From IMG/VR virus record IMGVR_UViG_3300047373_000579, positions 1-64,000 of that record: 64,000 nucleotides of DNA. One strand, 5' to 3'. Position numbers and translations under genes: made by a program. The notes under the pieces were generated by a model, which was not told where the DNA came from, ran no database searches, and worked only from the letters and a program-made list of their open reading frames with translations. The stretch is from a virus. Every line of letters starts with the position of its first letter. Position 1 is the stretch's first letter. Positions 1,161-54,407 of this stretch are shown piece after piece.

Positions 1161-2063
1161 TTATTTAAACATCTCTACAAATTCTTTGCCACTGACCCTA
1201 GGGAAATTACCCATTACCATATTATTATAATCATCATAATTATAGGTACTTATATATAAATTTCCTTTTTTTATTATATAAGCTTTTGATTTGCAGTGTT
1301 CTCTTTTTAGGTTCTTTCCTTTTCCAGACCAATAAACCCCCATATCTAATATCTTTTGTTGTATCTCACAAGCTTTCTTATCAGATACCCCATCTAAATC
1401 TATATAAAATTCACTTGTTTGTAAATTAAAATCAGGTCCACCCTGAATCCATTCTAGTTCATTAGATTCCATTAATTTATTAGAACAAGGTTTATATCTA
1501 TGACTAAGTAAATCTTCTTCAAAATACTCTTCATGCATATTCCTAATGTCTGTATTATTTTTTTTATTCTTTATTACTACAATAGGTGTTCCACCAAGAG
1601 TCATTTTAAAATCGATTATTATCCATTCTGTTTGTGTTGAATCCATTACATCTATAAAACAAGTTCCTACTTTTAATTCAGGGATGGGTTTAATATCTTT
1701 AATCCATTGAAGGTCATTAGATTCCATTAATTCATTATGGTGGTCTTCTATTTTCATCTTGCCGTCTGAAGTGTAAAACCTTGTGTCGCCTTTGCCGTCA
1801 TATTCTAAATGTTCCCAGTATTTTTTTTGTAAGGGTATAAAATGAGAATTGTTTATTTTTTTTCTAAGTTTTGTTATTTTGATTTTAAAATCATTAACTT
1901 CTATTTTTGTTTTAGCATCACAATCCGCTAGTTCCCCTGAAAGTGTTAAAACATCTCCTTTTTTAAGTGTTCCTTGTTCGAAAGCATCATTTAAAGTGGG
2001 TTTAATGTTTTTAATCCATTCTAGACCATATAGTTCTTCCTTTATGATTCTTTTTAGATTCAT
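1161..2063 (-). CDS. modular tagged polyprotein-like protein (3 modules)
   Basis: Start MNLKRIIKEE just after GATATTTAT; junctions KEELYGLEWIK, LMESNDLQWIK, LMESNELEWIQ. Confidence 0.8.
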   Translation of the reverse strand: MNLKRIIKEELYGLEWIKNIKPTLNDAFEQGTLKKGDVLTLSGELADCDAKTKIEVNDFKIKITKLRKKINNSHFIPLQKKYWEHLEYDGKGDTRFYTSDGKMKIEDHHNELMESNDLQWIKDIKPIPELKVGTCFIDVMDSTQTEWIIIDFKMTLGGTPIVVIKNKKNNTDIRNMHEEYFEEDLLSHRYKPCSNKLMESNELEWIQGGPDFNLQTSEFYIDLDGVSDKKACEIQQKILDMGVYWSGKGKNLKREHCKSKAYIIKKGNLYISTYNYDDYNNMVMGNFPRVSGKEFVEMFK

Positions 2064-2067
2064 ACTA

Positions 2068-2076
2068 ATAAATATC
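2068..2076 (-). promoter_or_regulatory. putative late promoter GATATTTAT
   Basis: 4 nt upstream of ATG 2063; same motif before about 22 genes. Confidence 0.65.
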
Positions 2077-2133
2077 ATAATTACTAATTAAAAATATATT
2101 ATATTATAGTTGTTGTTATATATTTATAAGGAG

Positions 2134-2853
2134 ATGAAAGATTTAATCAAAAAAATATTAAGAGAGAATGACTTTGATTGGGTAAAAGAATTAAACCCAA
2201 TACAATGCAAAGACTTAAAAGGTTATTATTTTTATCATGGTGGTGACACTAGAAAATTTATGATAGATGATGTTGGGGTAAAACTTTCAAAAGGTTATGT
2301 TACAGATGATTTAAAAGTCCATTATACATGGTGGGATAGTCATAGTGATGACTTTGATTGGAATCAAATGAATTGTGATACTTTTATTCATAGAGTTAAA
2401 CTTGGTGATTATAGATTGTTTAATAAAAACCGAGAAGAAGTTAACCCAAAAGACTTAGCTTATACAGATAATACTTTCGATGATGATGAAAGAAAAGAAA
2501 TTTGGGAACAAGATGAATCAGACGACTTTCAATGGATTAGAGATATAGAAAATTCTGATTACGAACCACGCCATGGAGATTATATAGAAGTTATTAATCT
2601 TGGTAGTGAAAAGAGTTTTTTAACTTGGTTGAATGACTTTGAGTATGACTATATAGATGGTTATTATGGTCCTACAATTAAAGGTGAAGTTTCTATTGGG
2701 GAAGTAAATTATTTTGAATTAACAGAAGAGAATACAAACACGGTAATTACTTTCCCCGCAATTAGTATAATGCACGATTTAACAAATAGTGAAGAGTATC
2801 CAGGACTTAAATTAATGTACAGACCTTTAACTAGAGATGGAGGAATTCAGTAG
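2134..2853 (+). CDS. modular tagged polyprotein-like protein (2 modules)
   Basis: Start MKDLIKKILRENDFDWVK after ATATTTATA (2120-2128); internal QDESDDFQWIR. Confidence 0.8.
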   Translation: MKDLIKKILRENDFDWVKELNPIQCKDLKGYYFYHGGDTRKFMIDDVGVKLSKGYVTDDLKVHYTWWDSHSDDFDWNQMNCDTFIHRVKLGDYRLFNKNREEVNPKDLAYTDNTFDDDERKEIWEQDESDDFQWIRDIENSDYEPRHGDYIEVINLGSEKSFLTWLNDFEYDYIDGYYGPTIKGEVSIGEVNYFELTEENTNTVITFPAISIMHDLTNSEEYPGLKLMYRPLTRDGGIQ

Positions 2854-2964
2854 GTTTTTAGTTTTTTTAGCTATTATAATAGTTATTTTAACTTTTAGAA
2901 AAAACGATTAAAGATTACGCCCAATAAACTTTATTTATTCAGTAATTTTTATTATAATTAAATA

Positions 2965-3057
2965 ATGGAAGGAATAGAAATAGTTTTTTGTGTTATTAGT
3001 ATTATTGTTGCAACTATATTTGTTGCAGCAAGAAAATGGCATCGTAAAAATAAGTAA
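2965..3057 (+). CDS. small membrane peptide (30 aa, not in ORF track)
   Basis: MEGIEIVFCVISIIVATIFVAARKWHRKNK: one hydrophobic helix plus basic tail. Confidence 0.45.
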   Translation: MEGIEIVFCVISIIVATIFVAARKWHRKNK

Positions 3058-3060
3058 AAA

Positions 3061-3285: not shown

Positions 3286-3286
3286 A

Positions 3287-3702: not shown

Positions 3703-3727
3703 TTTATTTTATTTTAAATCTATGGTA

Positions 3728-4356: not shown

Positions 4357-4399
4357 TTTTTTTTAATTTATATTTAATATTTATTTAAAAACCCATAAC

Positions 4400-4976: not shown

Positions 4977-4985
4977 GATATTTAT
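4977..4985 (+). promoter_or_regulatory. putative late promoter GATATTTAT
   Basis: 6 nt upstream of ATG 4992. Confidence 0.65.
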
Positions 4986-4991: not shown

Positions 4992-7763
4992 ATGCGTAAA
5001 CTAAACAAAAATATATTGTGGGAATCTAGTGAGTTGGATTGGATGAAAGGTCCACCTACATTTCGTTTTGGTGAAATTAGTCGTGATTTAAGAAATTTTT
5101 TTTCTAAGGGTGATAAAATTTATTTAACAGGTACTATATATCTAAGTAAAGATGATGATGATAAAACATTACTTTTAAATCATGAACCCGCTATTGTTAC
5201 AAATATTAGAGAAGATGTGGGAGTTTTAGACTTAATTTTAGGGGAAAATATAACTAGTTTACCTATTTGGATTAATGCTATGGGTGGTGCGGAATTAGAT
5301 TTAGGCATTTTTAACGAAGATGATGATATAATGATTACAGTTACATATAAAAACATAAACGAATCCGATGACCTAGATTGGATAAGAGATGTCCAACCTA
5401 ACCAAAAAGTTAAACCATGGAATGGTAATATTGGTTACCCCATTGAAGATAAAACATCACCAACATACGGTAAAGTTTATCTTTACACAGATGATGAAGG
5501 TGTGACTAGAGAGATTAAAGTTGGTGGTCTTACATCTAAACATAGAACTAAAAACTATAAGGGTGAGTGGTTTGGTTCTGATGGTGAGGTTAGTTTTTAT
5601 GACGCTTCTATAATGAGTAGTGATATAGAATCTAGAAACTATGACCCTAACTATCCAGACCCATTTGAAGGTAAGTATCGAATCACAATGAGTAGGCGAG
5701 AATATAATGATAATGCACGTAAGGGTAAATTAATATTAACCCCAAATAGTAACCCTATTATTGAGTCTGAAGAAGATTTTGAGTGGACTTCAGGGTTAAA
5801 TTGGTCTAAAGAAATGTTGGACATACTGTTAACCGATTGTAAAACATTAAAGGTTGCTAATTTTAATATTAGTAACAACGAACCATACCATTCAGCTGGA
5901 GGTCCATCGATTATGTTCTTAAGTAGATGTAAAGAATGGTGGGATTACTTCGGTAGTTTACCGTTAAGTGATTCAGGTAGAGGACCAGCAGAATGGTTCA
6001 CTGAAGATAATTATGAGGATGGTGAGTATGGTGTTATTTGGAACCCAGGATGGGGTAGAATTAATTTAACACCGAAGTTAGAGGATTTAAAAAATGGTTA
6101 TACTTCAGCTATAACAACTCAATGGGGTTATGGTATAGAAAGACAACTAAACGGTACTAGTAAGAGTGAGGCTTGGTTTATTGTAGATGAAAACAATAGG
6201 CCTGTATATGATTTAATCCCTGAATCTGTCAAGGGTTATGCTAAAATATATGAAGAAGAGTTTTTTGGTGACAAATTAAATGAATCTGATGATTTTGATT
6301 GGGCTAAAGAAATACCTGGAACTAAAGAATATGGCCAAAGATATAGGTATTTTGAAATTGTAGCTTGTTATGGTATTGATTACGAAACTGAAGAGTGTGA
6401 TGATGAATATTCTCACCATATTAGAATACCATCAGATGTAGTTGACGAGATATGGGATATACCTGATTTTGATTTTGATTATCTAGCTGGTCCTGCTGAC
6501 GAGGGTGAAGGTGTTATTATGTACGCAATAAAAAATCAATTAATACCACCCGTAGAACTAAATGAAATAGCTATGTTCCAAGGTGTTAGGGAAGAAGATG
6601 ATTCTCACTTTGATGGTATTGATGAAAACATAAATGAATCCGAAGATTTGGAATGGATTAAAAATATTAACCCACAAGGTTTTGAAAAAAGTAAAAGTTA
6701 TGTTGTTGATGTTAGTGACTTAAGACCAGACACACCAATATCTGTTTCCCCTACTTCTGAGAGATACAATAAATTAACAAAAGTAGATGTTCTAGACAAA
6801 TTTAAAAATTTAGGTTATAGTGTTGGTGGTATTCCTATTACTGACGCCGATTATCTATATATTGAACCTGAGTACCACATTGTAGACTATGATATGGAAC
6901 ATAACACACCAGACCCAACTTATAATGGTAGATATGAAGTGATGGATGTTAATGACCTTATGTTCTTACTTGATAACAATATGGTTAATGAATCCAAAGA
7001 ACATAAAAAAACAATAACTGAAGCAGCAGGAATTTCATTTGAAGCAAGAAAATGGGGTGAAACTATCTATAATGAGATAGTGAATAACCCAAATGAGAAA
7101 AAAAGATTGATTATTGATGGTTATGACCATCCTGAAGCGTTTGATGGGTTCCCAATAGACTATGTTGTTGTTGATTTCTACGATAGATTAACAGGATATG
7201 GACAAGAACACTCAGGATATGATAAAGATGGTAACTATGTGGTTCTTTTATACGTACAACCAAGGTTAGTACAAGGTCAAGGAGGGTATGATTTAAGGTC
7301 TGTACTTAACCATGAGATGAAACACGCGTGGGAAGACTACAATAGACTCTCAAAAGGGTTGCCAAGTATAGAACAAACCAAAGAATCACAAGAATTATAC
7401 AACAGAGACTTTATTTTAATGTTATCAGACCAAAATATAAGGGGTCCAATCAAAGAAATCTTAAAATATTACTATTATTTGTCTGATTTAGAGAAAAGTG
7501 CGTACCTAGAGAACGTTTATGACCAAAATAAAGTATACGAAAGGGTATTAAGAGACATAGCTGGTAAAGATTTTAATGAATTTAAGGATAGGTTTGACCT
7601 AGATATCAATTGGCACCTAATGAATACCGCGTATGACATACCATTTTTAAAGAAATTTAAGTCTCCAATCGACTTTATTGACTATTCTGCGGAAGAATTA
7701 AGGTCAAAAGCGTTAAAAATGATTAAAAAAGTGAATAAAATGAGATATATTCACAAAAAGTAG
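4992..7763 (+). CDS. modular tagged polyprotein-like protein (5 tagged modules plus C-terminal HExxH zincin-like domain)
   Basis: Junction Glu codons at 5022, 5361, 5763, 6282, 6636; untagged VNES at 6990; HEMKH at 7311-7325. Confidence 0.85.
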   Translation: MRKLNKNILWESSELDWMKGPPTFRFGEISRDLRNFFSKGDKIYLTGTIYLSKDDDDKTLLLNHEPAIVTNIREDVGVLDLILGENITSLPIWINAMGGAELDLGIFNEDDDIMITVTYKNINESDDLDWIRDVQPNQKVKPWNGNIGYPIEDKTSPTYGKVYLYTDDEGVTREIKVGGLTSKHRTKNYKGEWFGSDGEVSFYDASIMSSDIESRNYDPNYPDPFEGKYRITMSRREYNDNARKGKLILTPNSNPIIESEEDFEWTSGLNWSKEMLDILLTDCKTLKVANFNISNNEPYHSAGGPSIMFLSRCKEWWDYFGSLPLSDSGRGPAEWFTEDNYEDGEYGVIWNPGWGRINLTPKLEDLKNGYTSAITTQWGYGIERQLNGTSKSEAWFIVDENNRPVYDLIPESVKGYAKIYEEEFFGDKLNESDDFDWAKEIPGTKEYGQRYRYFEIVACYGIDYETEECDDEYSHHIRIPSDVVDEIWDIPDFDFDYLAGPADEGEGVIMYAIKNQLIPPVELNEIAMFQGVREEDDSHFDGIDENINESEDLEWIKNINPQGFEKSKSYVVDVSDLRPDTPISVSPTSERYNKLTKVDVLDKFKNLGYSVGGIPITDADYLYIEPEYHIVDYDMEHNTPDPTYNGRYEVMDVNDLMFLLDNNMVNESKEHKKTITEAAGISFEARKWGETIYNEIVNNPNEKKRLIIDGYDHPEAFDGFPIDYVVVDFYDRLTGYGQEHSGYDKDGNYVVLLYVQPRLVQGQGGYDLRSVLNHEMKHAWEDYNRLSKGLPSIEQTKESQELYNRDFILMLSDQNIRGPIKEILKYYYYLSDLEKSAYLENVYDQNKVYERVLRDIAGKDFNEFKDRFDLDINWHLMNTAYDIPFLKKFKSPIDFIDYSAEELRSKALKMIKKVNKMRYIHKK

Positions 7764-26932: not shown

Positions 26933-26956
26933 AAAACCCCCTTTCGGGGGTGTTTT
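26933..26956. terminator. bidirectional intrinsic terminator
   Basis: AAAA-CCCCC-TTTC-GGGGG-TGTTTT between convergent genes. Confidence 0.75.
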
Positions 26957-31136: not shown

Positions 31137-31703
31137 TTAATCGTAATCTTCATCGTAATCTCTAGGGTCAAAACCAGACTGTCTTTTTTCGTATTCCTCT
31201 GACTCTAAACCAGATTCATATTCTCTACCTTCTTCAAAACCCCTATTATATATTATCGATTTTTGTTTTTTTATCTCATCTTCTAATTCCCCTCTCATAT
31301 CAATTTTCCCATCTTCAAAACCTTCATCATAAGCCTCTTCAAGTTCATTGTCAATGTCATACTTAGCATCTATTTCACCATCATACACACCTTCTCTATA
31401 ACCCTCATTATGACCTTCTTCCCAACCCTCTCGTTGACCTGTATCTCTACCACTATCATAAATAGATTCAGAAAAATCATATAACACATCAGCCATTTCA
31501 TCTAATTTTTCACCACTTAAACCTAAACGATAAATAAAGTCTACTAATTTATTTGAATCTACAAATCTTTCATGAATATAATAATCATTATCCTCTAAAT
31601 TTTTTAATTTATTAGTGATTTCACTTTTTGATGCGGGGTTGGTATTTTTAACCCAATCAAAATCATTATCTTCCTTTAATATTTTCTTAATTAAATCTTT
31701 CAT
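31137..31703 (-). CDS. tagged single-module protein with GxxxG (FliH/Yae1-like) repeats
   Basis: MKDLIKKILKEDNDFDWVK; GRDTGQREGWEEGHNEGYREG. Confidence 0.75.
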   Translation of the reverse strand: MKDLIKKILKEDNDFDWVKNTNPASKSEITNKLKNLEDNDYYIHERFVDSNKLVDFIYRLGLSGEKLDEMADVLYDFSESIYDSGRDTGQREGWEEGHNEGYREGVYDGEIDAKYDIDNELEEAYDEGFEDGKIDMRGELEDEIKKQKSIIYNRGFEEGREYESGLESEEYEKRQSGFDPRDYDEDYD

Positions 31704-31712: not shown

Positions 31713-31732
31713 ATAAATATCACGATATTTAT
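31713..31732. promoter_or_regulatory. back-to-back divergent late promoters
   Basis: ATAAATATC-AC-GATATTTAT perfect inverted pair between divergent genes. Confidence 0.7.
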
Positions 31733-31736
31733 GAAT

Positions 31737-32831
31737 ATGGACATAAACGAGAAAGAAATTGAACAAGCCAGCAGAAAGATAGATTTATCTGGATTTAAAA
31801 TGCAGGATGAACTCAACCCTAAGATATGGGATAAAGAACAAAAGATGAAACCTGATGTTAAAAAAACTCTATTAAAGATTGCTGATGATTATTTTGAATC
31901 TTTAGATTTACCTGGGGTAGATATTGAAGATGTTACTATGACGGGTTCTTTAGCTAACTATAATTGGTCTAAGTACTCTGATGTTGATTTACATATTGTA
32001 GTGGATTATAATGATATTCCTGTAGATGAGGATTTAGTTGTAGATTTTCTTAAATCAAAAAGTTCTAATTGGAATAAAGAACATGATGTTAAAATATATG
32101 GGTACGATGTTGAACTATATGTTCAAGATGAAAATGAAGAGCATCACTCAACTGGGGTTTACTCTATACTAAAAAACGAGTGGATAACCAAACCACAAAA
32201 AAAGAAAATATCTTTTAACGATAAGTCCGTTAAAGATAAATCAAATCGTTTTATGGATAAAATAGAGGAGATTTATAGTGAAATGGACGATGTTGATAAT
32301 AGTGAGACGATTAAACGTGTTGATAAATTAACAGAAAAAATTAAAAAAATGCGTCAATCAGGTTTAGAGTCTGGTGGTGAATTTTCAGTTGAAAATATTG
32401 TTTTTAAAGTTTTAAGACGTAATGGTATGTTGGATAGATTGTATGATATTAAAACTGTCGCGTATGATAAATCCGTTACCTTAGAATCTACAATTATGAA
32501 TGAGAGGTTGATGGATAAAATAAAAGAAATTAACCCAAAAGAAGAAATAGATAAAGCCAAAAAAAAATTAAAAAAGTTTGGTGAAGGTTTAAAACAAGAA
32601 GGGAAAGAAACAAAGAGGGCTTGGAATACTGTAGTTGATGCTATAAATAATAAAAGAGATTTAACACCCGAAGAAAGAAAAGAGGTTGGTGACCAATTAG
32701 GTGACTTATTAAAAACAACTGGTCTTACCTTAGCTACCTTTTTACCAGGTGGTATATTATATCTTTTATTAACAAGAGTTCCACGTTTTAAAAAATACCT
32801 AATTCCATCTTCTTTCAGGGATTTAAACTAA
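31737..32831 (+). CDS. Pol-beta-superfamily nucleotidyltransferase with extra C-terminal domain
   Basis: TGSLANYNWSKYSDVDLH (GS...DxD), YDVELYVQD; second domain after TLESTIMNE. Confidence 0.8.
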   Translation: MDINEKEIEQASRKIDLSGFKMQDELNPKIWDKEQKMKPDVKKTLLKIADDYFESLDLPGVDIEDVTMTGSLANYNWSKYSDVDLHIVVDYNDIPVDEDLVVDFLKSKSSNWNKEHDVKIYGYDVELYVQDENEEHHSTGVYSILKNEWITKPQKKKISFNDKSVKDKSNRFMDKIEEIYSEMDDVDNSETIKRVDKLTEKIKKMRQSGLESGGEFSVENIVFKVLRRNGMLDRLYDIKTVAYDKSVTLESTIMNERLMDKIKEINPKEEIDKAKKKLKKFGEGLKQEGKETKRAWNTVVDAINNKRDLTPEERKEVGDQLGDLLKTTGLTLATFLPGGILYLLLTRVPRFKKYLIPSSFRDLN

Positions 32832-42363: not shown

Positions 42364-43164
42364 ATGAATTTTGGTACATTAAAAGATATATTTTGTTTAA
42401 AACTAATAGAATCTTATTCTTCTGAAGACGAAATTTCTAAAGAACACGGTAAAGATTTATATAAAAAGTTTTTAAAAACAATAAATGAAAGTGAAACATT
42501 AAAAACAGCCTTTATTGTTTTTAAGAATATTGAAACTGAGACTTTAAGTAGTGAAATCTCAGCCAATGAGTATTTAAAAGAGTCTATTAAATTATTTAAA
42601 AATAAAAAATCATTAACTAAGGAAATCAATAAATTAACTAATTTATTAGAGAGTAATGGTATTGATTATAAAGATTCAAAAACAACAAAACTACATAGAG
42701 ATATACAAAATCTAATAACTTCACCTAGAAACATTGGGACTTTACAAAAGTTACAAGAATCTAGGGAAAGTATAACTGAGTGGTTAGTTACAGATAAAAT
42801 TAAAATAAACGAAACAGAATCAGAGGAGGATTTAATTAGGAAAAATGTTGACCCTAAAAAATTCTTAAACATTGCTGTAAATAAATTTAATGAAAAATAT
42901 AAAGATTCATTAAACGAAGAGGAAAAATATATATTAAAAGTTTTACGTGAAAACAATGAAGACACAATTAAAGAATTAGTGTTAAATTTAGTGAAAGAAA
43001 CAGTAACCCTTGTTAATAAACATTTAAATGAGAACGGAGAAAATATTAATATTAAAGGAAAATTGTTAGAAACTAAGGACACAATATACAGAATGTCTGA
43101 AGATAACGGCAATTTTAATCAAAATATTTTAAAATTGTATGAGTTAAAAAAGAGTTTAAATTAA
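42364..43164 (+). CDS. hypothetical head-assembly protein
   Basis: 266 aa, helical; follows portal; CATATTTAT at 42340-42348. Confidence 0.7.
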   Translation: MNFGTLKDIFCLKLIESYSSEDEISKEHGKDLYKKFLKTINESETLKTAFIVFKNIETETLSSEISANEYLKESIKLFKNKKSLTKEINKLTNLLESNGIDYKDSKTTKLHRDIQNLITSPRNIGTLQKLQESRESITEWLVTDKIKINETESEEDLIRKNVDPKKFLNIAVNKFNEKYKDSLNEEEKYILKVLRENNEDTIKELVLNLVKETVTLVNKHLNENGENINIKGKLLETKDTIYRMSEDNGNFNQNILKLYELKKSLN

Positions 43165-44192: not shown

Positions 44193-45302
44193 ATGAAAAA
44201 AGTTTTTTTAGAATACGTTTGGTTGGACGGAAATCAACCACAACAATTAAGAAGTAAAACTAAAGTAACTAGTTTTGAAGAGGTAAAAGATTACATCCAT
44301 AGTGGGTTTGTTTGGAACTTACCCAAATGGTCTTTTGATGGAAGCTCAACAAAACAGGCTAAAGCCGGTAAAGGTGAAAATACAGATTGTATTTTAAAAC
44401 CTGTGTTTTCTTGTAATGACCCATTTAGAGGTGATAATCATTATATAGTCTTTTGTGAAGTCTTAAATCCAGACGGAACCTTACACCCAACAAATAAAAG
44501 AGGTGAGTTGAGAGAGTTTATGAAAAAAAATAAAATGATGGACTCTAAAGATAATCTAGAAAAATCTAATTGGTTTGGTTGGGAACAAGAATATACTTTA
44601 ACCACGAAACCAAATTTTAAAGAAGGTGAAGGATTACCCCTTGGTTTTAGACCAAAAGAAGAACCTAGACCACAAGGAGATTATTATTGTGGTGTTGGAG
44701 CAGATAATATCACAGGTAGAAGAATCGTGGAAGAACATTTAGAAAAATGTGTTGAAGCGGGTCTAGATATCTCAGGTATTAATGCTGAAGTTATGTTAGG
44801 ACAATGGGAATACCAAATTGGGCCTGTAACTTCTCTTGAGGGTTCAGACCAATTATGGGTTTCTAGGTACATTTTACAAAGAGTGGCAGAGGAAAACGGA
44901 GTTAAGGTATCTTTCCACCCCAAACCTAAAACAGGTGATTGGAATGGTTCAGGATGTCACGTTAATTTTTCAACCCCTGAAATGCGAGAAGAGGGTGGTA
45001 TTGAATTAATTAAAGATTCTGTAGAGAAATTGGCTTTAACACATGACGAACATATGAAAGTTTATGGTTTACATAATGATAAACGTATGACAGGTGAACA
45101 TGAAACTTCTAGTATAGACGATTTTAGTTATGGGTATAGTACTAGAGATACTAGTATTAGAATACCCGCTCAATCAAGTATCGATGGTAAAGGTTATTTT
45201 GAAGACCGTAGACCAGCTTCTAATTGTGACCCATACAGTGTGGCATTACGTATGTTACAAACTGTATATAACGAAGTTGAAGAACTTATGAGTATTGACT
45301 AA
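44193..45302 (+). CDS. glnII: glutamine synthetase type II
   Basis: EYVWLDG, WSFDGSST, EQEY, GINAEVM.GQWEYQIGP, DWNGSGCH, SIRIP, GYFEDRRPASNCDPY. Confidence 0.95.
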   Translation: MKKVFLEYVWLDGNQPQQLRSKTKVTSFEEVKDYIHSGFVWNLPKWSFDGSSTKQAKAGKGENTDCILKPVFSCNDPFRGDNHYIVFCEVLNPDGTLHPTNKRGELREFMKKNKMMDSKDNLEKSNWFGWEQEYTLTTKPNFKEGEGLPLGFRPKEEPRPQGDYYCGVGADNITGRRIVEEHLEKCVEAGLDISGINAEVMLGQWEYQIGPVTSLEGSDQLWVSRYILQRVAEENGVKVSFHPKPKTGDWNGSGCHVNFSTPEMREEGGIELIKDSVEKLALTHDEHMKVYGLHNDKRMTGEHETSSIDDFSYGYSTRDTSIRIPAQSSIDGKGYFEDRRPASNCDPYSVALRMLQTVYNEVEELMSID

Positions 45303-45921: not shown

Positions 45922-46653
45922 ATGAAAATATTAAAACCAGGTGAAGAAGGTTATGGATTCCTAGTAGAATACGATTCTGGATTTGTATCGTCTGAACTAA
46001 CCTGCCAAGATGGGGTGTGTTCAAACCACAATTTAATTAACGAATTTAAATCAGGATTAAGTCTAGGACAAGATGGTTCTTTACCAGACAAAATAGAAAT
46101 ATATGCTGTACTCCAAAAATGGGGTGTAGAAAATAAAAACGGGAGAGTCTATCCCGAAGAAATCCTTAAAAGAGAGGCAAAAAGATACCAAGAATTTATT
46201 GACATGGGGACTTCACTAGGTGAGTTAAATCACCCCGAATCTTCAATTATTGATGCTGATAGAGTGTCACATATGATTTCAGAGATTTGGTGGAACGGTA
46301 GAACACTTATGGGTAAAATGGAATTGGACACAACTCCGGGTTATCTTAAGTCAGGTATTATTTCATCTGTAGGTGACAAAGTTCTTAATATGATTAGGAA
46401 GGGTTGGACCGTTGGTATTTCTTCAAGGGGTGTTGGTTCACTTAAAAATGAAAATGGTAAGAATGTGGTACAAGATGATTTTGAATTAATTTGTTGGGAT
46501 ATCGTTACGTCACCATCAACTCCAGGTTCTTGGATTTCTTCAAGTGAAAAAGATTTGAAACCTTATATGGAATCAACAAAAGATAATAAAACAAAATTAG
46601 TGGTTGAGAATGACTCTGACTTACTAGATAATTTAAATAAATTTTTATTGTAA
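45922..46653 (+). CDS. prohead core protease (T4 gp21-like)
   Basis: NKNGRVYP, LGELNHP, RVSH, GISSRGVGS, DFELICWDIVTSPST; CATATTTAT at 45898-45906. Confidence 0.93.
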   Translation: MKILKPGEEGYGFLVEYDSGFVSSELTCQDGVCSNHNLINEFKSGLSLGQDGSLPDKIEIYAVLQKWGVENKNGRVYPEEILKREAKRYQEFIDMGTSLGELNHPESSIIDADRVSHMISEIWWNGRTLMGKMELDTTPGYLKSGIISSVGDKVLNMIRKGWTVGISSRGVGSLKNENGKNVVQDDFELICWDIVTSPSTPGSWISSSEKDLKPYMESTKDNKTKLVVENDSDLLDNLNKFLL

Positions 46654-47018
46654 TGAAAAAGAAAATAGTAAAATTAACAGAACAAGACCTAGAAAAGTTG
46701 GTCAAAAAAATCATTAAGGAAGATGACAATTATGATGATGACAATTATGAAGCCTTTTATGAAAGAAGTCCTCAATTAGCTGATTTACATGATGAGGTTT
46801 TATATTTAACACCCGGCTTTGGAATGGGTGGTACCGCAGGTGGTGTTGAAGTATTTGAACAAATGATGGATGCAATAGACATGGATGGTACAGAACTTTC
46901 TGATGAAGCTAAAGGAATAATTAAAAGACTTAGGTATGACCTTGGTGCTTTAGAAGGTTTCAATGAAAGAGTGGTGAAATTATATGAGGTCATCAGTGGT
47001 GAAAATCTTAGTGATTAA
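46653..47018 (+). CDS. leader-bearing putative internal head protein
   Basis: MKKKIVKLTEQDLEKLVKKIIKED. Confidence 0.7.
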   Translation: MKKKIVKLTEQDLEKLVKKIIKEDDNYDDDNYEAFYERSPQLADLHDEVLYLTPGFGMGGTAGGVEVFEQMMDAIDMDGTELSDEAKGIIKRLRYDLGALEGFNERVVKLYEVISGENLSD

Positions 47019-47030
47019 AATAAATAAATT

Positions 47031-47594
47031 ATGAAAAACATTATATCAGAAAGAGAATTAAAAAGAATGGTTAAAAAAGTTGTTAGAGAAGAAAAACTAA
47101 ACAACATTAACGAAGATAGAACTGACTTTGAAATGAGTGGTGCTAGAAGTCGTAAAGATTATACATCAAACCCAAGAGAAAGAGACATCTCTTCTATGTT
47201 TGGTAAATACGCTGATGATGTTCCACCAATAGTAATTAGATATCTAAGAAAAAATCCTGAAGCTATTGTAAAAAGATTATTTAAAATTTATGGTGAAAAA
47301 ATATTTGACTATCTACCACAACAAGAAATGGAGGAAGAGTATGATTCTTATATGGATGATGTTCATGAAGATAAGGATTGGATTAAAAAAGCTGTTGAGA
47401 AACCTGGTTCTCTAAGAAAAAAAATGGGACTTAAAAAAGACCAAAAATTAACTTCAGCTGATATTAGAAAAAAAATGTCTCAACTTAAGAAAAAAGATAA
47501 AGACCCTAGTAAAAAAGGTGTTCAAGGTTTAGGTAAAAGAGATTTAAAAACTTATAGACAATTGAATTTGGCTAAAACTTTACGTGGCTTATAA
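47031..47594 (+). CDS. leader-bearing protein with basic C-terminal module
   Basis: MKNIISERELKRMVKKVVREE; WIKKAVEKPGSLRKKMG...LAKTL. Confidence 0.7.
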   Translation: MKNIISERELKRMVKKVVREEKLNNINEDRTDFEMSGARSRKDYTSNPRERDISSMFGKYADDVPPIVIRYLRKNPEAIVKRLFKIYGEKIFDYLPQQEMEEEYDSYMDDVHEDKDWIKKAVEKPGSLRKKMGLKKDQKLTSADIRKKMSQLKKKDKDPSKKGVQGLGKRDLKTYRQLNLAKTLRGL

Positions 47595-47678
47595 GTATTT
47601 ATATATAAGTTGCGCTGCAGCAAGCAGCTTAAGCAAAAAGCAGCAAGCAAATAAATAAAAATATAATATATAATAAAA

Positions 47679-47951
47679 ATGAAAAAAAGAATCGTAAAAT
47701 TAACTGAAAATGATTTAGAAATGTTAGTTCAAAAAATCATCAAAGAAGAAGGTGAAATGTCTTCTGGTATTGAAAAGAAAACTGGTAGGATTATTGAGTT
47801 ACCCGTTTTTGGTCAATTAACTAAACAAATTAAATCTAAAAACGTGGATGAACAGGTTGAGGTCTTTATGACTTTATTAGGTCAAATGGATTTAAAAGGT
47901 AACTTTGGCATTAAACTTAAAAAAGCGATGCAAGAAAAAGGTTTAATGTAA
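47679..47951 (+). CDS. leader-bearing putative internal head protein
   Basis: MKKRIVKLTENDLEMLVQKIIKEE. Confidence 0.7.
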   Translation: MKKRIVKLTENDLEMLVQKIIKEEGEMSSGIEKKTGRIIELPVFGQLTKQIKSKNVDEQVEVFMTLLGQMDLKGNFGIKLKKAMQEKGLM

Positions 47952-47952
47952 T

Positions 47953-48477
47953 ATGAACATTCGTAAAATCATAAAGGAAGAACTTCTTAAGGAAGTGGGT
48001 GGTTATGATGACCCAAGTGTCATGGCTCAACATGCTGGAAAGTCAATGGGAGCACTCGCTAGTAGTCATAATGATTTATCTAACTTATTAGCTGGTATAG
48101 CTAATCAAGTTATGGATAGAGCTGATAAAAATGATATCAGTGATTCTTTAAGGGAAACATCAAAAGAAATAAATTTTTTCATAGACATTATCAAAACCGC
48201 TATAAGTGAAGTTATGGAAGATGATGTTATACTCCAAGCTAAAAAAGTTATTAAGTCACTTAATTCTTTTAGAAGAAGAATAGATGTTCTTTCTAATTTT
48301 TCAGACTCTATGGGTAATGATGAACAGTTTATTGAAAGGGTTAAACTTTTATTAATGGATTTAATACCTACACTAGAAGAATACGGTAAACAATTAATGA
48401 CCACTAACAAAATGTTCGGTGATAGATTGTCCAATATGGGTCGTAGTTCTTTTGGTTCTGGATTTAGTTCTAACTAA
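47953..48477 (+). CDS. leader-bearing helical protein
   Basis: MNIRKIIKEELLKE. Confidence 0.7.
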   Translation: MNIRKIIKEELLKEVGGYDDPSVMAQHAGKSMGALASSHNDLSNLLAGIANQVMDRADKNDISDSLRETSKEINFFIDIIKTAISEVMEDDVILQAKKVIKSLNSFRRRIDVLSNFSDSMGNDEQFIERVKLLLMDLIPTLEEYGKQLMTTNKMFGDRLSNMGRSSFGSGFSSN

Positions 48478-48810: not shown

Positions 48811-48842
48811 AAAAAAGACTCAGAAATGGGTCTTTTTTTTTT
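48811..48842. terminator. intrinsic terminator between convergent genes
   Basis: AAAAAAGACTCA-GAAA-TGGGTCTTTTTT. Confidence 0.8.
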
Positions 48843-49269
48843 AGTCTTGATATTCTTTAGGTAATCCCATTTCATCAGCTATTTTTTTAAATAACCCCTC
48901 ATGTTCTTTATGTTTGGGTAAATCTTTTCCTACACACGCGTGAATCAATTCGTGTACAATCACCCATTTAAGGTATTCTTTATCTTCTAAAGCTTTTGGT
49001 TTAATACCCATTAAACCGTTTTTCCCATTTTTAGGGTGATTAAATCCAGCTATTTTACCATCCTCTATTTTACTATCTAGTTTAATATCTATTTTAGGTA
49101 AATCTAATTCTTTTCCTGTCACTTTTTTATAAACTTTTTTTAATTCCACCTCAATACTATTTTTTAATGTATTAATAGTCTTTAAATCATCGTTTTTTTC
49201 TTTTAAACGTAGATTTGTCATTTCCATAGAAAGACTTTCCTTAATCATTTTTTTAATAAAATCAACCAT
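48841..49269 (-). CDS. SprT-like zinc metalloprotease with leader
   Basis: HELIH...H...FKK; N-terminal IKKMIKES; GATATTTAT on minus strand at 49276-49284. Confidence 0.75.
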   Translation of the reverse strand: MVDFIKKMIKESLSMEMTNLRLKEKNDDLKTINTLKNSIEVELKKVYKKVTGKELDLPKIDIKLDSKIEDGKIAGFNHPKNGKNGLMGIKPKALEDKEYLKWVIVHELIHACVGKDLPKHKEHEGLFKKIADEMGLPKEYQD

Positions 49270-49414: not shown

Positions 49415-50566
49415 ATGGCTGAAACAAGAAAGTCTATCATCGATGAAGCTTTTATGGAAGCGGAAAGTATAGAACAAGCTTTCAAAGCTAACTCAAAAGA
49501 AATACTGGCTCATACAATGGGTTCAGAAATTGAAGAAATGGTAAAGGAATCTTTAGAAGGTTCGGTAGCTTTAAACGAAGACGAAGATGATGAGAATGTT
49601 GATTTAGAGTTAGACTTAGGTTTAGACTCTGACGAGGCCGGCGAGGATGCTGGTGACGACCTTGACCTAGAATTAGGTGATGAGGATGATGAAATTGAAA
49701 TGGACGATGAGGATATGGATATGGATTCTGATGACCTTGAAATTGTAGACCTTACAGATGAAGATGACGAGACAGTAGTTAATGTTTTCAAAAAAATGGC
49801 TGACGAAGACGAAATCGAAGTTGTTCAAACTGAAGACGGGGTTGAAATCAAGGATAACGAAACTGGTGCCGAGTACAAAATAGAACTTGGTGGTGATTCT
49901 GAAATGGATGATGAAGACATGGAAGATATGGATGATGAAGATATGGAAGACATGGAAGACATGGAAGGTGAAATTGAGTATCAAATCGAATTAGATGATG
50001 AGGAAGACGAAGAAGAAATGGAAGACGAAATGTCTGAAGATTCTAGACGTACACCTTCTAATAGAAGAAAACGTAATTTAAAACCTGCTAGTCTAAAAAA
50101 CGAGTCTAAAAAACCAAAGTTCTTAAAGTTAGTAAACGAAAATAAAGTTCTAAAAAATAAAATGAGTTCAATCACGACTGAAAACGAAACTTTAAAAGAA
50201 GACTACAACAAAATGGTAGACGCTCTTAAAGAATTCAGACAAAAGTTGAACGAGGTAGCTGTTTTTAACAGTAACCTTACATATACAGTTAGATTGTTTA
50301 CTGAACACACAACAACTAAAAGTGAAAAAGTTGATATCATTAAAAGATTTGACGATTCAAAGTCACTTAAAGAATCTAAGGCTACATACAAAAATTTAGT
50401 TAAAGAAATCTCTAAGACAAAGACACCAATTAAAGAATCAATTGATGAAAAACTTAATGAAACTAAAAGTAGTGGTTCAGCATCTGAAATAACTGAATCA
50501 AAAGTTTATGTAGACCCACAAATAGAAAAAATGAAACAATTGTGGAACTACGAATATAAAAATTAA
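49415..50566 (+). CDS. prohead scaffolding protein (T4 gp22-like position)
   Basis: Acidic N-half and coiled-coil C-half, many L/I-x-E sites, immediately upstream of the capsid gene. Confidence 0.8.
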   Translation: MAETRKSIIDEAFMEAESIEQAFKANSKEILAHTMGSEIEEMVKESLEGSVALNEDEDDENVDLELDLGLDSDEAGEDAGDDLDLELGDEDDEIEMDDEDMDMDSDDLEIVDLTDEDDETVVNVFKKMADEDEIEVVQTEDGVEIKDNETGAEYKIELGGDSEMDDEDMEDMDDEDMEDMEDMEGEIEYQIELDDEEDEEEMEDEMSEDSRRTPSNRRKRNLKPASLKNESKKPKFLKLVNENKVLKNKMSSITTENETLKEDYNKMVDALKEFRQKLNEVAVFNSNLTYTVRLFTEHTTTKSEKVDIIKRFDDSKSLKESKATYKNLVKEISKTKTPIKESIDEKLNETKSSGSASEITESKVYVDPQIEKMKQLWNYEYKN

Positions 50567-50599: not shown

Positions 50600-52378
50600 A
50601 TGGGATATTTATTAAAATCTGGAGAAGTTGGTAATATCGGACTTAAGCACCAAAAAGCTGTTCGTGAAGCAACTGTCTCTAAATGGAACGACCTAGGATT
50701 CTTAGAAGGATTAGAAGGTCACGTAAGAGAGAACATTGCTTTGTTATATGAAAACCAAGCATCTGTTCTTATCAATGAAACTACTGACGCTGGTTCAAGC
50801 GGTTCTTTCGAGACTGTAGTTTTTCCTATCGTTAGAAGAGTTTTCTCTAAATTATTAGCTAACGATATCGTATCTGTACAAGCTATGAACTTACCAATCG
50901 GTAAATTGTTCTACTTCGTACCTAAAGCTTCTGAAAGAGTTACTGGTGCCGATGGTAAAGAAAGACACGGTGAGCCAGTTGTTACAACTTGTATCAATGA
51001 TAATGTAGCTTGTGACGAAACAACTTACTCTGATTGTGCTAAGAATCTTTATGACAGATTCTACAACGATGAGTTCTTTGACCAATCAAAAGGTGCTTTC
51101 TCAGCAGTTACAAGAAACGCAGACCCTGTAATTTGGACGGCATGTTCTACTGGTTCTGAATTTACTGACGGTGTTTCTGCATTCGGTGGTGACGGTTCGG
51201 TTAGAACTCAAATCTTAAAATTATGTGGTTTCAATACATCTGGAGCTGGAAGATTAACAGGACCTAACGGAAACGAAATGGATACTGAAGAGTTTTTAGC
51301 TTCTTTAGACCTTACTGTTACTGGTGACTTAGTTGATAAAGATGGTCAAGTAATTTTAGCGTCAGGTGACCAAGTTCCTTTTAGAGTTGTTACTCAAAGA
51401 TATGGAAAAGGTATCGTTGATTACGGTGATATCTGTACTCCTGATGGATGTATCTATTTAGAGGCTGATTTAACTCACCCTGTATGTGTTACTTGTGATG
51501 ACGGTACTTTCGATGGTTACATTGGAGCACAATCAGGTACAACTGCTATCGTTCCTGGAGCTGGTGTAGCTAACTTAGGTGGAACTTCATTCGCAGCAGT
51601 TTGGAGACAATACGAAGACCTAGAGCTTGAATCTCAAATGGGAGAAGTTTCTTTCGAACTTGATTCTGTTACAGTATCGGTTACTGAAAGAAAACTAAGA
51701 GCTACTTGGACTCCTGAATTAGCACAAGACGTATCAGCATTCCATAACATTGATGCTGAAGCTGAATTAACAGCTTTATTGTCTGAGCAAGTTGCAGCTG
51801 AAATCGATAGAGAAATCTTGAGAGACCTTAGAAAAGGTGCAGCATGGCAATTACGTTGGGATTACAACGGTTATAAGAGATTACCACAATCTAACGCTTA
51901 CACTCAAAAAGAGTGGAACCAAACGTTAGTAACGGCAATCAACCAAATCTCAGCTCAAATTCACAAGTCTACATTAAGAGGTGGAGCTAACTTTATCGTG
52001 GTATCTTCTGAAGTATCAGCAATTTTTGATGATTTAGAGTACTTCCACGTATCAAACGCTTCTCCTGAGCAAGACAACTATAACATGGGTATTGAGAGAG
52101 TAGGTTCTTTATCAGGTAGATATACTGTATACAGAGACCCTTACGCTCCAGCTAACTCAGTATTAGTAGGTCATAAAGGTAAGTCATTGTTGGATACTGG
52201 GTACATTTACGCACCTTACGTACCATTACAATTGACTCCTACAATGTACAACCCGTTCAACTTCGTACCTGTTAAAGGTATCATGACTCGTTACGCTAAG
52301 AAATTTGTTAACAACAGATTCTACGGACAAGTTAATGTTGATGGATTACGTACATTTGACGTGAGAGAATTAAGATAG
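50600..52378 (+). CDS. major capsid protein (T4 gp23-like)
   Basis: LYENQA, PIVRRVF, VSVQAM..P.G, RKLRATWTPELAQD, AEIDREI, YAPYVPL, GIMTRYA. Confidence 0.97.
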   Translation: MGYLLKSGEVGNIGLKHQKAVREATVSKWNDLGFLEGLEGHVRENIALLYENQASVLINETTDAGSSGSFETVVFPIVRRVFSKLLANDIVSVQAMNLPIGKLFYFVPKASERVTGADGKERHGEPVVTTCINDNVACDETTYSDCAKNLYDRFYNDEFFDQSKGAFSAVTRNADPVIWTACSTGSEFTDGVSAFGGDGSVRTQILKLCGFNTSGAGRLTGPNGNEMDTEEFLASLDLTVTGDLVDKDGQVILASGDQVPFRVVTQRYGKGIVDYGDICTPDGCIYLEADLTHPVCVTCDDGTFDGYIGAQSGTTAIVPGAGVANLGGTSFAAVWRQYEDLELESQMGEVSFELDSVTVSVTERKLRATWTPELAQDVSAFHNIDAEAELTALLSEQVAAEIDREILRDLRKGAAWQLRWDYNGYKRLPQSNAYTQKEWNQTLVTAINQISAQIHKSTLRGGANFIVVSSEVSAIFDDLEYFHVSNASPEQDNYNMGIERVGSLSGRYTVYRDPYAPANSVLVGHKGKSLLDTGYIYAPYVPLQLTPTMYNPFNFVPVKGIMTRYAKKFVNNRFYGQVNVDGLRTFDVRELR

Positions 52379-52400
52379 TATAAATCTTAAACAATAACTG

Positions 52401-52428
52401 AAGGGGAACTTAATGTTCCCCTTTTTTT
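52401..52428 (+). terminator. intrinsic terminator after capsid gene
   Basis: AAGGGGAAC-TTAAT-GTTCCCCTT plus T run. Confidence 0.85.
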
Positions 52429-52439
52429 ATGCTTTATTA

Positions 52440-52448
52440 GATATTTAT
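52440..52448 (+). promoter_or_regulatory. putative late promoter GATATTTAT
   Basis: 4 nt upstream of ATG 52453. Confidence 0.65.
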
Positions 52449-52452
52449 TAAT

Positions 52453-53712
52453 ATGAATCTAAAAAGAATCATAAAAGAAGAAATTGACGATAGTCTAGAT
52501 TGGATTAAGGATACACCAGAAGTTTCTATTGGGGGTAAAAACGGTTTACCAATAGAAAGTGTTCCTTTAGGTACCAAGATAGTAACACCTGACGGTGATG
52601 TATTCACTATAGAAGATGTTACTGGCTTTCATATGCCACATCAATTTGTGTGGGGTAGAGACTTAAAACCAGCTTGGTTGGGCCCTAAAAATGATGAGGA
52701 TAATAAGAATTGGCATAACGCTTTATGGTTACGAAGAGCAACCCCTGAAGATTTAAACGAATCTGAAGAGTTAGATTGGATTAAAGGTGTTGACACATAT
52801 TATAAGGTAGAACAATTAGAAGTTGGTAAGATGTATGAGTTCATACCTGATTATTCTATCATGGGCAAATACGATGGTTATGATGATTTCCCTAATTGGG
52901 TTTCTAGTTATGAGGGTCAAAACTTTTATATTATTAAACAAGAGCCCAAACCTAGATTTCCAAAAAGTGGTGAGATTACCTTTAAACAGATTGGTAAGTC
53001 TAATAAAATGATTTACGATGGTAAATACGTTAAACTACCATACAACGCTAGAGTATTTTTATGGGGTAAGTTTAAAGAGGTTGAAAACCCTGAATTTGTT
53101 ACGGAGAATGAAGAATTAGATTGGATTCAAGATACACAACCTGATAAAAAAGACATTCTTAATTTTAATAAAAAAATGTATAAAACAACCCTTGATTATG
53201 ATGATATTAAGATAGGGGATAAGTTTATACCACCCGGTAGCCATCATATATGGACCGTTGATGATATGTATGATTGGGGTGTAAGTAGACGTGACTATCG
53301 TTTCATGGTTTGGTTAAAAAATGATAAAGGAAGTATTAGAAGAAAAATTTATAACCGTGGTAATAAATTTCCTGGTGATTATAGGCCTTGGAGAAAAATT
53401 GTTAATGAACAAATAAAAGAATCTAATAAAGAATGGGATTGGGCTAAAGATATTACTCCTGTTGAATTGGAAGACCCTGAAGATTGGATTGGGAGGTCGT
53501 TTGGTTATGGTCCTGAAATAATAGATGAAATGAGTGATATGGAAATAATTGAAGGTGACCATGAAGAATATTATACAATAAAAGAAATTGATGTTAATGG
53601 TAATTTATCCTTAACCAAGTACCACCCAAAGTATGGTAAAAATCATGATAGTAGTACATCAGTTAATTTTTTAAGAGAGTATATTAGTAACGGTAGATGG
53701 GTATGGAAATAA
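52453..53712 (+). CDS. modular tagged polyprotein-like protein (4 modules)
   Basis: IIKEEIDDSLDWIK, LNESEELDWIK, VTENEELDWIQ, IKESNKEWDWAK. Confidence 0.85.
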   Translation: MNLKRIIKEEIDDSLDWIKDTPEVSIGGKNGLPIESVPLGTKIVTPDGDVFTIEDVTGFHMPHQFVWGRDLKPAWLGPKNDEDNKNWHNALWLRRATPEDLNESEELDWIKGVDTYYKVEQLEVGKMYEFIPDYSIMGKYDGYDDFPNWVSSYEGQNFYIIKQEPKPRFPKSGEITFKQIGKSNKMIYDGKYVKLPYNARVFLWGKFKEVENPEFVTENEELDWIQDTQPDKKDILNFNKKMYKTTLDYDDIKIGDKFIPPGSHHIWTVDDMYDWGVSRRDYRFMVWLKNDKGSIRRKIYNRGNKFPGDYRPWRKIVNEQIKESNKEWDWAKDITPVELEDPEDWIGRSFGYGPEIIDEMSDMEIIEGDHEEYYTIKEIDVNGNLSLTKYHPKYGKNHDSSTSVNFLREYISNGRWVWK

Positions 53713-54407
53713 GAAAAATAATACGAGAAGAAATAGAAGACTTTAGTGACTTTGAATGGGCTAAAGGTGAAATAGAATACCCAATATATTCAATAGATTT
53801 TCTTATTGGTAAAAAGGCGTATTATAGAGAGAATAACATGGAAGAGGTCCAAAAAACTCAAAAATGTACTATGTCAGATTTAAATAAGTCAGACTTAAAT
53901 TTAGGTGAAATAAAAAATGGTATTGGTTGGACAATAAAAAAAGGTAATTTACCAGGTCCGAAGAATAGTGTTAGTATAATACTTGACAACAACAAAGGTA
54001 CACAGCATTGGTTTGAAGACGATGTATTAGAATTTGTTAGGTTAGGTATTTGGGTTGTTGAGGGTGATGACGGTAAATTTATAAATGAATCAGAGGAATT
54101 TGATTGGATTAAAGATATTGAACCTGAAATCACTAATGAAAATTTTCATATGTTTTATAATAAACCTTTTTATTGGTATAGTCCCTTGAGTCCAAATAAA
54201 TGGGTTACTTCTCAAGGAATGCCTAGAGTTTATTGGTTTGAAGAGTCTGGTATTCATTCAAGAGATAACGATGAGATAGCTTTGTTTTGTTATAAAGATT
54301 TTGAAAGAGATGAGTGTACGGATATGTTCCATTCAACAGCTATTAACTATATAAAAAAAGGGGTTTTACAACACCAACCACAATTAAGTGATATTAAGGA
54401 TGATTAA
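53703..54407 (+). CDS. modular tagged polyprotein-like protein (2 modules)
   Basis: MEIRKIIREEIEDFSDFEWAK, INESEEFDWIK; start 53703 or 53697. Confidence 0.8.
   Translation: MEIRKIIREEIEDFSDFEWAKGEIEYPIYSIDFLIGKKAYYRENNMEEVQKTQKCTMSDLNKSDLNLGEIKNGIGWTIKKGNLPGPKNSVSIILDNNKGTQHWFEDDVLEFVRLGIWVVEGDDGKFINESEEFDWIKDIEPEITNENFHMFYNKPFYWYSPLSPNKWVTSQGMPRVYWFEESGIHSRDNDEIALFCYKDFERDECTDMFHSTAINYIKKGVLQHQPQLSDIKDD

Follow-up and report, generated by a model that had tools for sequence, protein, structure and literature searches.

Why would a phage place one and the same short acidic, tryptophan-containing peptide in front of protein modules that look unrelated to each other? The question is raised by a 64,000-nucleotide stretch of viral DNA (the window), which is the first 64 kb of the 72.6-kb (72,624-base) IMG/VR record IMGVR_UViG_3300047373_000579 (G000), of estimated completeness 22%. 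The window has a GC content of about 31%. It is closely syntenic with a complete 380-kb IMG/VR genome, G001 (83.5% identity for the capsid protein, 93% for the protease and 84% for the terminase), and can therefore be taken to derive from a jumbo myovirus; its phage is assigned to the uncultured, T4-like jumbo myoviruses. The initial annotation, based on the letters of the window, had singled out six open reading frames (ORFs) as capsid-packaged polyproteins cut at repeated junctions, each cut leaving the peptide (hereafter the DW tag, or tag) at the N-terminus of a module. All six were checked and translate as it described:

1161-2063, minus strand: wA, 300 amino acids (aa), leader MNLKRIIKEE and three tagged modules (aromatic residue of the tag at aa 14, 118 and 203)
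2134-2853, plus strand: wB, 239 aa, leader MKDLIKKILRE and two tagged modules (aa 14 and 132)
4992-7763, plus strand: wC, 923 aa, diverged leader MRKLNKNILWE, five tagged modules (aa 15, 128, 263, 435 and 553), then an untagged conserved C-terminal domain
31137-31703, minus strand: wD, 188 aa, leader MKDLIKKILKE and a single tag ahead of a very acidic body
52453-53712, plus strand: wE, 419 aa, leader MNLKRIIKEE and four tagged modules, E1 to E4 (aa 15, 107, 222 and 328), directly 3' of the capsid gene
53703-54407 (start 53697 or 53703), plus strand: wF, 234 aa, leader MEIRKIIREE and two tagged modules (aa 17 and 133)

The six ORFs are assigned to a large and undescribed family of late proteins that is found in phages only. 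The reading that we favour, which we consider about evenly balanced between right and wrong, is that they encode late, leader-addressed cargo polyproteins of the head, that these would be cut at the junctions by the S77 prohead protease, and that the tag would be a short linear motif for one common partner.

The junctions are the first element of this answer. Counted with the core [LFW]-[DEQ]-W-[IAVTM]-x, they number 17 (3+2+5+1+4+2 in the order above), as the initial annotation had claimed. A loose regular expression finds 16 of them, the 17th being FEWTS at about position 5778 in ORF 4992-7763. These 16 matches compare with 1.14 expected from residue composition and with a mean of 1.22 (maximum 5) in 200 residue shuffles. 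Elsewhere in the 72,624-base record, all six reading frames of which were searched, no tag was found. A 34-position profile (A1) built from the 17 window junction segments re-finds all 17 in their own genome and nothing else. The segments are:

1959-2060, 1647-1748 and 1392-1493, minus strand: junctions of wA
2137-2238 and 2491-2592, plus strand: junctions of wB
4998-5099, 5337-5438, 5742-5843, 6258-6359 and 6612-6713, plus strand: junctions of wC
31596-31697, minus strand: junction of wD
52459-52560, 52735-52836, 53080-53181 and 53398-53499, plus strand: junctions of wE, the second (E1/E2) reading …DLNE↓SEELDWIKG…, where the arrow marks the putative cut
53715-53816 and 54063-54164, plus strand: junctions of wF

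Successive tags are 85-172 aa apart in the window. Five regular-expression matches were dropped as not junction-like (wF aa 74; P0029, P0030 and P0031 at about aa 288; P0034 aa 178). The 107 unique internal junctions give the consensus [IL]-N-E-S-D-D-F-D-W-[IAV]-[KR]-D-[TI]-x-P, with Trp in 100%. For the family as a whole, the junction ahead of each module can be written [IL]-N-E↓S-[DE]-[DE]-[FLW]-[DE]-W-[IVA]-[KR]-D. The part preceding the tag is equally regular. [ILVM]-x-E stands before 485 of 512 unique internal tags, its Glu lying 3-8 residues ahead of the aromatic residue (358 at -4), against a background of about 10%. In these 512 tags, P3 is Ile in 222, Leu in 186, Val in 39 and Met in 38, while Asn occupies P2 in 276 and Ser occupies P1' in 423. 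T4 gp21 is described as cutting after L/I-X-E (PMC9026906), and the account of the SPN3US protease gives it a preference for Ser at P1' (PMC10052503). The junction thus matches the cut motif of T4-type prohead proteases.

A suitable enzyme and other putative substrates are encoded in the T4-type structural module of the window:

38282: large terminase
40457: portal
45922-46653, plus strand: prohead maturation protease of the T4 gp21 family (Peptidase_S77; PF03420, 97.6 bits against a cutoff of 27; PHROG 207)
49415-50566, plus strand: very acidic coiled-coil protein in scaffold position (an assignment from location and composition only); many of its 11 [IL]-x-E sites precede Ser or Thr
50600-52378, plus strand: major capsid protein (PHROG 138), V-L-I-N-E↓T at residue 60

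The gp21 homologue announced by the initial annotation is therefore a genuine member of Peptidase_S77. Two of its positions, E41-F42 (after L-I-N or L-I-R) and E217 (in [YF]-[MT]-E↓S), are conserved without exception across 24 homologues and look like self-processing sites near both ends of the protease; self-processing has been proposed for gp21 (PMC9026906). It is likely to be the enzyme that makes the junction cuts. A predicted complex of the mature protease (residues 42-217) with junction profile A1 scored 0.05, with a mark of 0.32, which speaks neither for nor against binding. The sites earlier noted in the capsid and scaffold proteins were also found. Residue E60 of the capsid protein lies in a column that is invariant in 5/5 sequences; these include the proteins of G001, immuto and Mel-JY01, and T4 gp23, where the aligned site reads F-L-T-E↓A. 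We take the L-T-E↓A position of gp23 to be the gp21 cut site; the T4 record gives gp23 as cleaved by gp21. The scaffold-position protein has no family match in Pfam or PHROGs. The protein encoded at 42364 is likewise rich in [IL]-x-E followed by Ser or Thr.

Could another protease of the same genome do the cutting? Two candidates were considered:

7005-7760, plus strand: C-terminal domain of wC, about 250 aa, putative zincin-like metallopeptidase (HEMKH at 7311-7325, Glu 20 residues past the second His)
48841-49269, minus strand: small leader-bearing protein of 142 aa (MVDFIKKMIKE) with HELIH; PF10263, SprT-like, 25.2 bits against a cutoff of 25.6

Processing by one of these metallopeptidases in place of the prohead protease appears quite improbable. 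The HExxH motif and the Glu at +20 of the wC domain (H115, E116, H119 and E139) are invariant in 8/8 homologues that are 74-94% identical, and the C-terminal position of the domain recalls that described for polyvalent proteins such as P1 DdrB and ArdC (PMC5512222). The domain is preceded by a conserved I-T-E↓A without DW tag. The SprT-like match is just short of its cutoff and the gene, which lies among the scaffold-position genes, is kept in G001 (60% identity); its product could be a packaged metallopeptidase. However, only 7 zincin-family modules occur in 189 proteins, and the junction fits both the S77 specificity and the capsid protein's own site. The zincin assignment of the wC domain is itself weak and serves as a lead only: zincin families appear among its Atlas structure neighbours only at TM 0.32-0.36, it has no Pfam or PDB sequence match, a PDB profile search gave a single chance row (E 4.5), and its AlphaFold model was not used (mean predicted local distance difference test score, pLDDT, 39.9).

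The second element is the way in which the chains are addressed and expressed. As stated by the initial annotation, a leader opens all six ORFs (6/6), with a diverged form in wC. It is 9-11 residues long, follows the pattern M-x-[IL]-[KR]-[KR]-[IL]-[IL]-[KR]-E and is present in 123 of 184 family members by a strict regular expression. Its last three residues are [LI]-x-E in 6/6 ORFs (I-K-E at 7-9, L-K-E or L-R-E at 9-11, L-W-E in wC). The capsid-targeting sequence of T4 is described as 10 residues long, positions 4 and 7 serving in targeting, 8 and 10 in processing (PMC9026906). The window leader follows this layout at residues 8 and 10, the two leaders being set side by side by description only. 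The expression signal is also shared. The late motif ATATTTAT has 31 occurrences where 14.5 are expected, a number reached in 0/100 shuffles, and lies 4-10 nucleotides upstream of the starts at 2063 (minus strand), 2134, 4992, 31703 (minus strand) and 52453. It also precedes structural genes, those for terminase, portal and protease included. The sixth ORF, wF, overlaps the stop codon of wE (53710-53712), which bears out the arrangement first reported. The copies before the tagged ORFs are:

2068-2075, minus strand: late motif of wA
2120-2127, plus strand: late motif of wB
4978-4985, plus strand: late motif of wC
31713-31720, minus strand: late motif of wD
52441-52448, plus strand: late motif of wE

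Two of these units are nearly the same DNA: motif, ATG and leader are identical at 41/43 nucleotides between 2034-2076 (minus strand, before wA) and 52440-52482 (plus strand, before wE), while the modules downstream differ. This indicates recent copying of an expression-and-address unit.

The leader also occurs without the tag, in a group of small genes:

46653-48477, plus strand: four small genes between protease and scaffold, with leader and no DW tag

Three of the four (46653-47018, 47679-47951 and 47953-48477), and also 55673-56089, have a leader ending in KKIIKEE; 47031-47594 opens with a related leader ending in KKVVREE. These leader-only genes are putative members of the head-targeted set. 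A longer second class of leader, M-K-K-[KR]-I-V-K-L-[TN]-E-x-D-L-E-x-L-V-[KQ]-[KR]-I-I-K-E-E, was observed at 46653-47018, 47679-47951 and 55673-56089. Its first half (L-N-E-S-D-L-E-K-L-V-K) resembles a DW junction in which Leu replaces Trp, and leader and tag may share an origin.

The third element is the diversity of what the tags precede. The 189 proteins that were divided gave 721 modules, which fall into 180 BLAST families with 99 singletons. Modules range from 47 to more than 160 aa and are typically about 110 aa long, a size that we take to lie within the range of the T4 internal proteins. Among the 45 largest families, where hhalign covered 729 of 990 pairs, a probability above 90% was obtained for only 6 of the 729. 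The earlier statement that the modules look unrelated stands at the sequence level; at the level of predicted structure it needs a qualification, E1 and E3 both being predicted, at middling Z, as small SH3-like beta-barrels.

These barrels bring in a further explanation, namely that one ancient and much-diverged domain is repeated throughout, with the tag as its N-terminal structural element, the chains being ordinary tandem repeats. The AlphaFold2 model of wE was built on an 18-row alignment (A3), from which P0003, P0006, P0032, P0033, P0036, P0073 and P0166 were excluded (MAFFT had forced non-homologous modules under wE columns), as were the E2-family proteins, so that E2 is without relatives and unmodelled. 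Its mean pLDDT is 54.7, with 60-89 in the bodies of E1, E3 and E4 and less than 50 in the tag-holding residues 1-20 and 320-333. VIA-align places E3 (246-319) on domain I of EF-P (Z 7.3, root-mean-square deviation 2.2, 64 residues aligned) and E1 (20-96) on a KOW domain (Z 6.8, root-mean-square deviation 2.5, 61 aligned); Z values below 8 may reflect a common arrangement only. Foldseek of the wE model against the PDB gave no match at E≤1e-3. Besides the two barrels, a Gly-containing strand that opens many modules soon after the tag would fit a repeated fold. Nevertheless, we regard this explanation as very improbable. In addition to the few related family pairs and the wide range of sizes, E4 is modelled as alpha/beta, the partners of the tag include a nucleotidyltransferase, and the barrel alignments begin 3-25 residues past the tags. 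In the model, the tags are no buried element of one repeated fold but lie in the low-confidence stretches, outside the modelled folds. The model weakly suggests that the tag acts as a linker motif and not as part of the module fold; it is the weakest of the supporting results.

Modules are also extensively shuffled, and the tag is where this happens. Architectures are combinatorial: module E1, for example, is found first, in mid-chain or near the end, with many different neighbours, and modules of some chains also exist as single-module genes with their own leader. Homology breakpoints accumulate at the junctions, 58% of 491 internal starts and 51% of 505 internal ends of high-scoring segment pairs falling within -12 to +6 of the tag Trp against 17% in the null. 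Protein P0001 corresponds to wE minus E2, and its junction combines the left half of E1/E2 with the right half of E2/E3; it is read as a crossover inside the tag, being exactly the hybrid expected. The strong conservation of the tag fits its use as a crossover point for gain, loss and swap of modules. Is the junction, then, kept mainly as a DNA-level recombination site, without function as a peptide? The breakpoints, the P0001 hybrid and the promoter-plus-leader cassette shared by wA and wE could all be accommodated, but we judge this extremely improbable. Synonymous codons vary freely at conserved positions of the tag (Ser TCT/TCA/TCC, Asp GAT/GAC, Leu CTA/CTT/TTG/TTA) while the amino acids are kept (Trp 17/17), which argues for selection on the peptide and not on DNA alone, and the peptide consensus is held across proteins that cannot otherwise be aligned.

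The position of modules within the chains raises a case for proteins that are never cut. The E4 family is the last module in 31/31 cases, the zincin-like family in 7/7 and the wB_m2 family in 13/17, while other families are never last. Chains could remain intact as multi-domain proteins, of the polyvalent type or resembling decoration or fibre proteins, with a C-terminal anchor and displayed beta-barrels, the tag being a multivalent docking linker. E1 and E3, if the predicted SH3-like barrels hold, would be typical binding domains, wE and wF directly follow the capsid gene, and a class of phage proteins with several domains, lysozyme and zincin-like peptidase among them, has been described (PMC5512222). 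However, a pure linker leaves [ILVM]-x-E-S before 95% of the tags unexplained, and a linker so conserved across many unrelated module families would be unusual. The single-module genes with their own leader, and a leader that is common to genes in head-core position, also argue against it. We consider intact chains somewhat unlikely. At its C-terminus, E4 (53434-53709) ends in an invariant Trp-Val-Trp plus one residue in 18/18 aligned sequences (17 homologues and wE), which may be an end-specific signal or anchor.

How widespread is this organization? The initial annotation proposed a profile search across relatives. Run against 1.84 billion representative proteins, A1 retrieves 280 at E≤1e-3, 73 at E≤1e-10 and 2 at E≤1e-30, with variable number and order of modules. 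Up to 13 junctions are matched in one metagenome protein. The 144 new representatives carry 1-10 tags each by regular expression, mostly 2-4, spaced by a median of 111 aa (interquartile range 95-125; n=383). A search with wE alone brings up 39 metagenome proteins that have its modules in other orders and with other partners, and module B1 of wB (family 7) recurs in many metagenome polyproteins.

In genome G001 the profile matches 43 times, in 21 open frames of which the longest has 1582 aa; the profile count is preferred, since the count by regular expression (38 ORFs, 74 tags) holds evident false positives. Comparison with the window shows how quickly the repertoire changes. Behind the capsid gene of G001 there is no tagged gene, hence no counterpart of wE at this position, and the modules of wE and wF are located at other G001 loci. 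wC shares with its G001 counterpart only the last module and the C-terminal domain, part of a tagged G001 ORF of 1254 aa matches one module of wA, and wD has a syntenic homologue of 43% identity. Module composition, far from being fixed among relatives, is extremely variable even between these two phages with 83.5%-identical capsid proteins.

Outside metagenomes the family is much harder to find. A search of viral contigs with wE for related loci gave no relative. A degenerate DNA pattern for N-E-S-D-D-F-D-W matched 3 stretches in viral contigs, with real tags in the G001 stretch only and none by regular expression in the other two. The same pattern, which is a narrow one, matched 10 stretches in 185,579 prokaryote genomes, with no array in any 8-kb locus; two Aliivibrio loci among the ten have one tag-like peptide each. 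Scans of the six ORFs against Pfam and PHROGs gave nothing meaningful, that is, sub-threshold Pfam matches for wD and wF and two PHROGs of unknown function for wA and wD. No protein of the family bears a functional name in the databases searched. A literature search, covering the main text of papers under Creative Commons licences, found no description of the motif or of phage-head polyproteins of this kind.

Recognisable cargo is rare. Pfam identifies a phage lysozyme in 4 and a NUDIX domain in 2 of 41 long family members, so that with the putative zincin the label of effectors would rest on few recognisable domains, most modules having no family. The C-terminal phage lysozyme is also carried by two of the 39 wE relatives. 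P0006 and P0007 consist of three tagged modules, a hydrophobic stretch resembling a membrane anchor and a C-terminal lysozyme (PF00959); a virion-delivered wall hydrolase is possible. A late nucleotidyltransferase-like gene in the window (31731-32831, plus strand) has weak Pfam matches to NTP_transf_2 and MTPAP-like profiles. Its G001 homologue (138362-140242) is 81% identical over the first 280 aa or so and then continues with two DW-tagged modules that replace a different tail in the window. The body of wD after its single tag (169 aa, net charge -30) has periodic Gly/Glu-rich repeats and a weak Yae1_N-like match. It looks like an acidic protein in the style of DNA mimics.

Under the favoured reading these elements would be assembled as follows. 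The leader, like the T4 capsid-targeting sequence, would bring the chain into the prohead core. The gp21-type S77 protease would cut after the Glu of each [ILVM]-x-E, which would remove the leader and free the modules, leaving the acidic-Trp peptide at each new N-terminus. The modules would stay in the head and exit with the DNA, a few chains adding a lysozyme, NUDIX or putative zincin domain. As the tag is kept before modules without detectable sequence relationship, the partner that reads it would be common to all of them, and not the module that bears it. This partner could be the protease, the portal or tail channel, the inner surface of the capsid, or the core or scaffold of the prohead. 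The initial interpretation is partly supported: the cut motif, the S77 protease, the capsid site, the leader layout, the linker-like tags and the variable module composition are in its favour, whereas the acidity of the modules and the families restricted to the C-terminus are not what it would predict.

Several observations weigh against the favoured reading. Internal proteins of the T4 type are described as basic (PMC9026906), whereas the modules have a median isoelectric point of 4.8, with 77% below 6 and 13% above 8 (n=643). Given the strictly terminal families, intact multi-domain proteins with an anchoring end fit at least as well as separate products. The capsid protein, the scaffold and the protease have the cut motif without the DW tag, so that cleavage does not explain the tag. 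Some family members open directly with M-[SDE]-D-F-D-W without any leader; unless their gene starts are mis-called, the leader is not the only address. With only 18 rows in the alignment, the low confidence of the tag region is weak evidence of disorder. No cultured carrier was encountered: none of the three closest database phages (Flavobacterium phage immuto, Mel-JY01 and LR756508) has a profile match, and tblastn of wE and wC found no match in 50,697 phage records. The closest capsid proteins in these records are only 37-46% identical over part of their length and belong to Microcystis phage Mel-JY01, an uncultured 484-kb phage, Flavobacterium phage immuto and Rhodothermus phage RM378. Judging by these relatives, marine Bacteroidota are the probable hosts of tag-bearing phages.

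A bolder variant would make the tag a second portable address, distinct from the removable leader, which cutting would expose, one receptor would read (for instance the portal or tail channel as the DNA is ejected, or, once inside the cell, a conserved host factor) and recombination would use as its joint. This we regard as unlikely.

How do these chains compare with known systems? The nearest are the internal proteins of T4 and other T-even phages (Ip1, Ip2, Ip3, Alt and no fewer than 10 others), which as described also have a leader of some 10 residues with [IL]-x-E at its end and a protease of the gp21 family (PMC9026906, PMC3012670, PMC12373910). They too are small products, a diverse, fast-changing and non-homologous cargo behind a conserved address. 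In contrast, a single ORF of the present family can chain up to 13 cargo units, every putative cut site is succeeded by an acidic-Trp tag that the product would retain, and the modules are acidic instead of basic. The polyvalent proteins of Iyer, Burroughs, Anand, de Souza and Aravind (2017; PMC5512222) are likewise multi-domain phage proteins (2-15 domains), some with lysozyme/transglycosylase and NUDIX domains; they are predicted to be packed in the head and injected, and their zincin-like peptidase domains are proposed to process the chain. However, their domains are mostly large recognisable enzymes, and their description gives no conserved junction peptide or punctuation by a prohead protease, whereas here nearly all modules are of about 110 aa, without family, and joined by one fixed motif. 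The giant phages phiKZ and SPN3US have many head-internal (ejection or inner-body) proteins in paralogue families, which gp21-like proteases cut after x-x-Glu with Ser preferred at P1' (PMC10052503). They differ in that N-terminal propeptides are removed (13/14 sites) and that the same account reports no chains of unrelated modules and no post-cleavage tag. What is new here is the tandem polyprotein with a fixed junction, the internal tag that is retained and the scale of module diversity. MARTX-type toxins also are mosaics of swappable effector modules that are freed by cuts in the linkers between them. The likeness is one of concept only: they are secreted bacterial toxins with their own cysteine protease domain, and share neither sequence nor context with the phage chains.

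Other genes of the record distinguish this phage from its relative or link it to it. A glutamine-synthetase-like gene (44193-45302, plus strand; Gln-synt_C 3.8e-19, Gln-synt_N 9e-10) lies in the head cluster between the portal-side genes and the protease and has no counterpart in the syntenic G001. On the minus strand, 26955-29423 encodes a full-length double AAA+ chaperone of the ClpB/ClpA type (Clp_N, AAA, AAA_2, ClpB_D2-small), which is 71% identical in G001. Past the end of the window, at 67008-72530 of G000, sugar-nucleotide dehydratase/epimerase-like genes and related ones form a block without BLAST counterpart in G001, which is classed as a strain-specific accessory island adjoining the conserved core.

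If the favoured reading is true, marine jumbo phages of this lineage load dozens of small proteins per virion from few genes and reshuffle them at a single peptide. The T4 paradigm of one leader and one cargo would extend to a combinatorial polyprotein format, the rule [IL]-N-E↓S-D-D-F-D-W-I-K would find candidate injected proteins in metagenomes, and the 180 module families in 189 proteins would offer many candidates for factors of anti-defence or host takeover. If the tag proved to be a second address, it would amount to a plug-and-play delivery code for well over a hundred kinds of small protein. The tag could also be used to load foreign proteins into phage heads, a purpose that the T4 targeting sequence has already served. 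Even without cutting, the family would be a large, clean and undescribed case of a conserved short linear motif joining unrelated domains.

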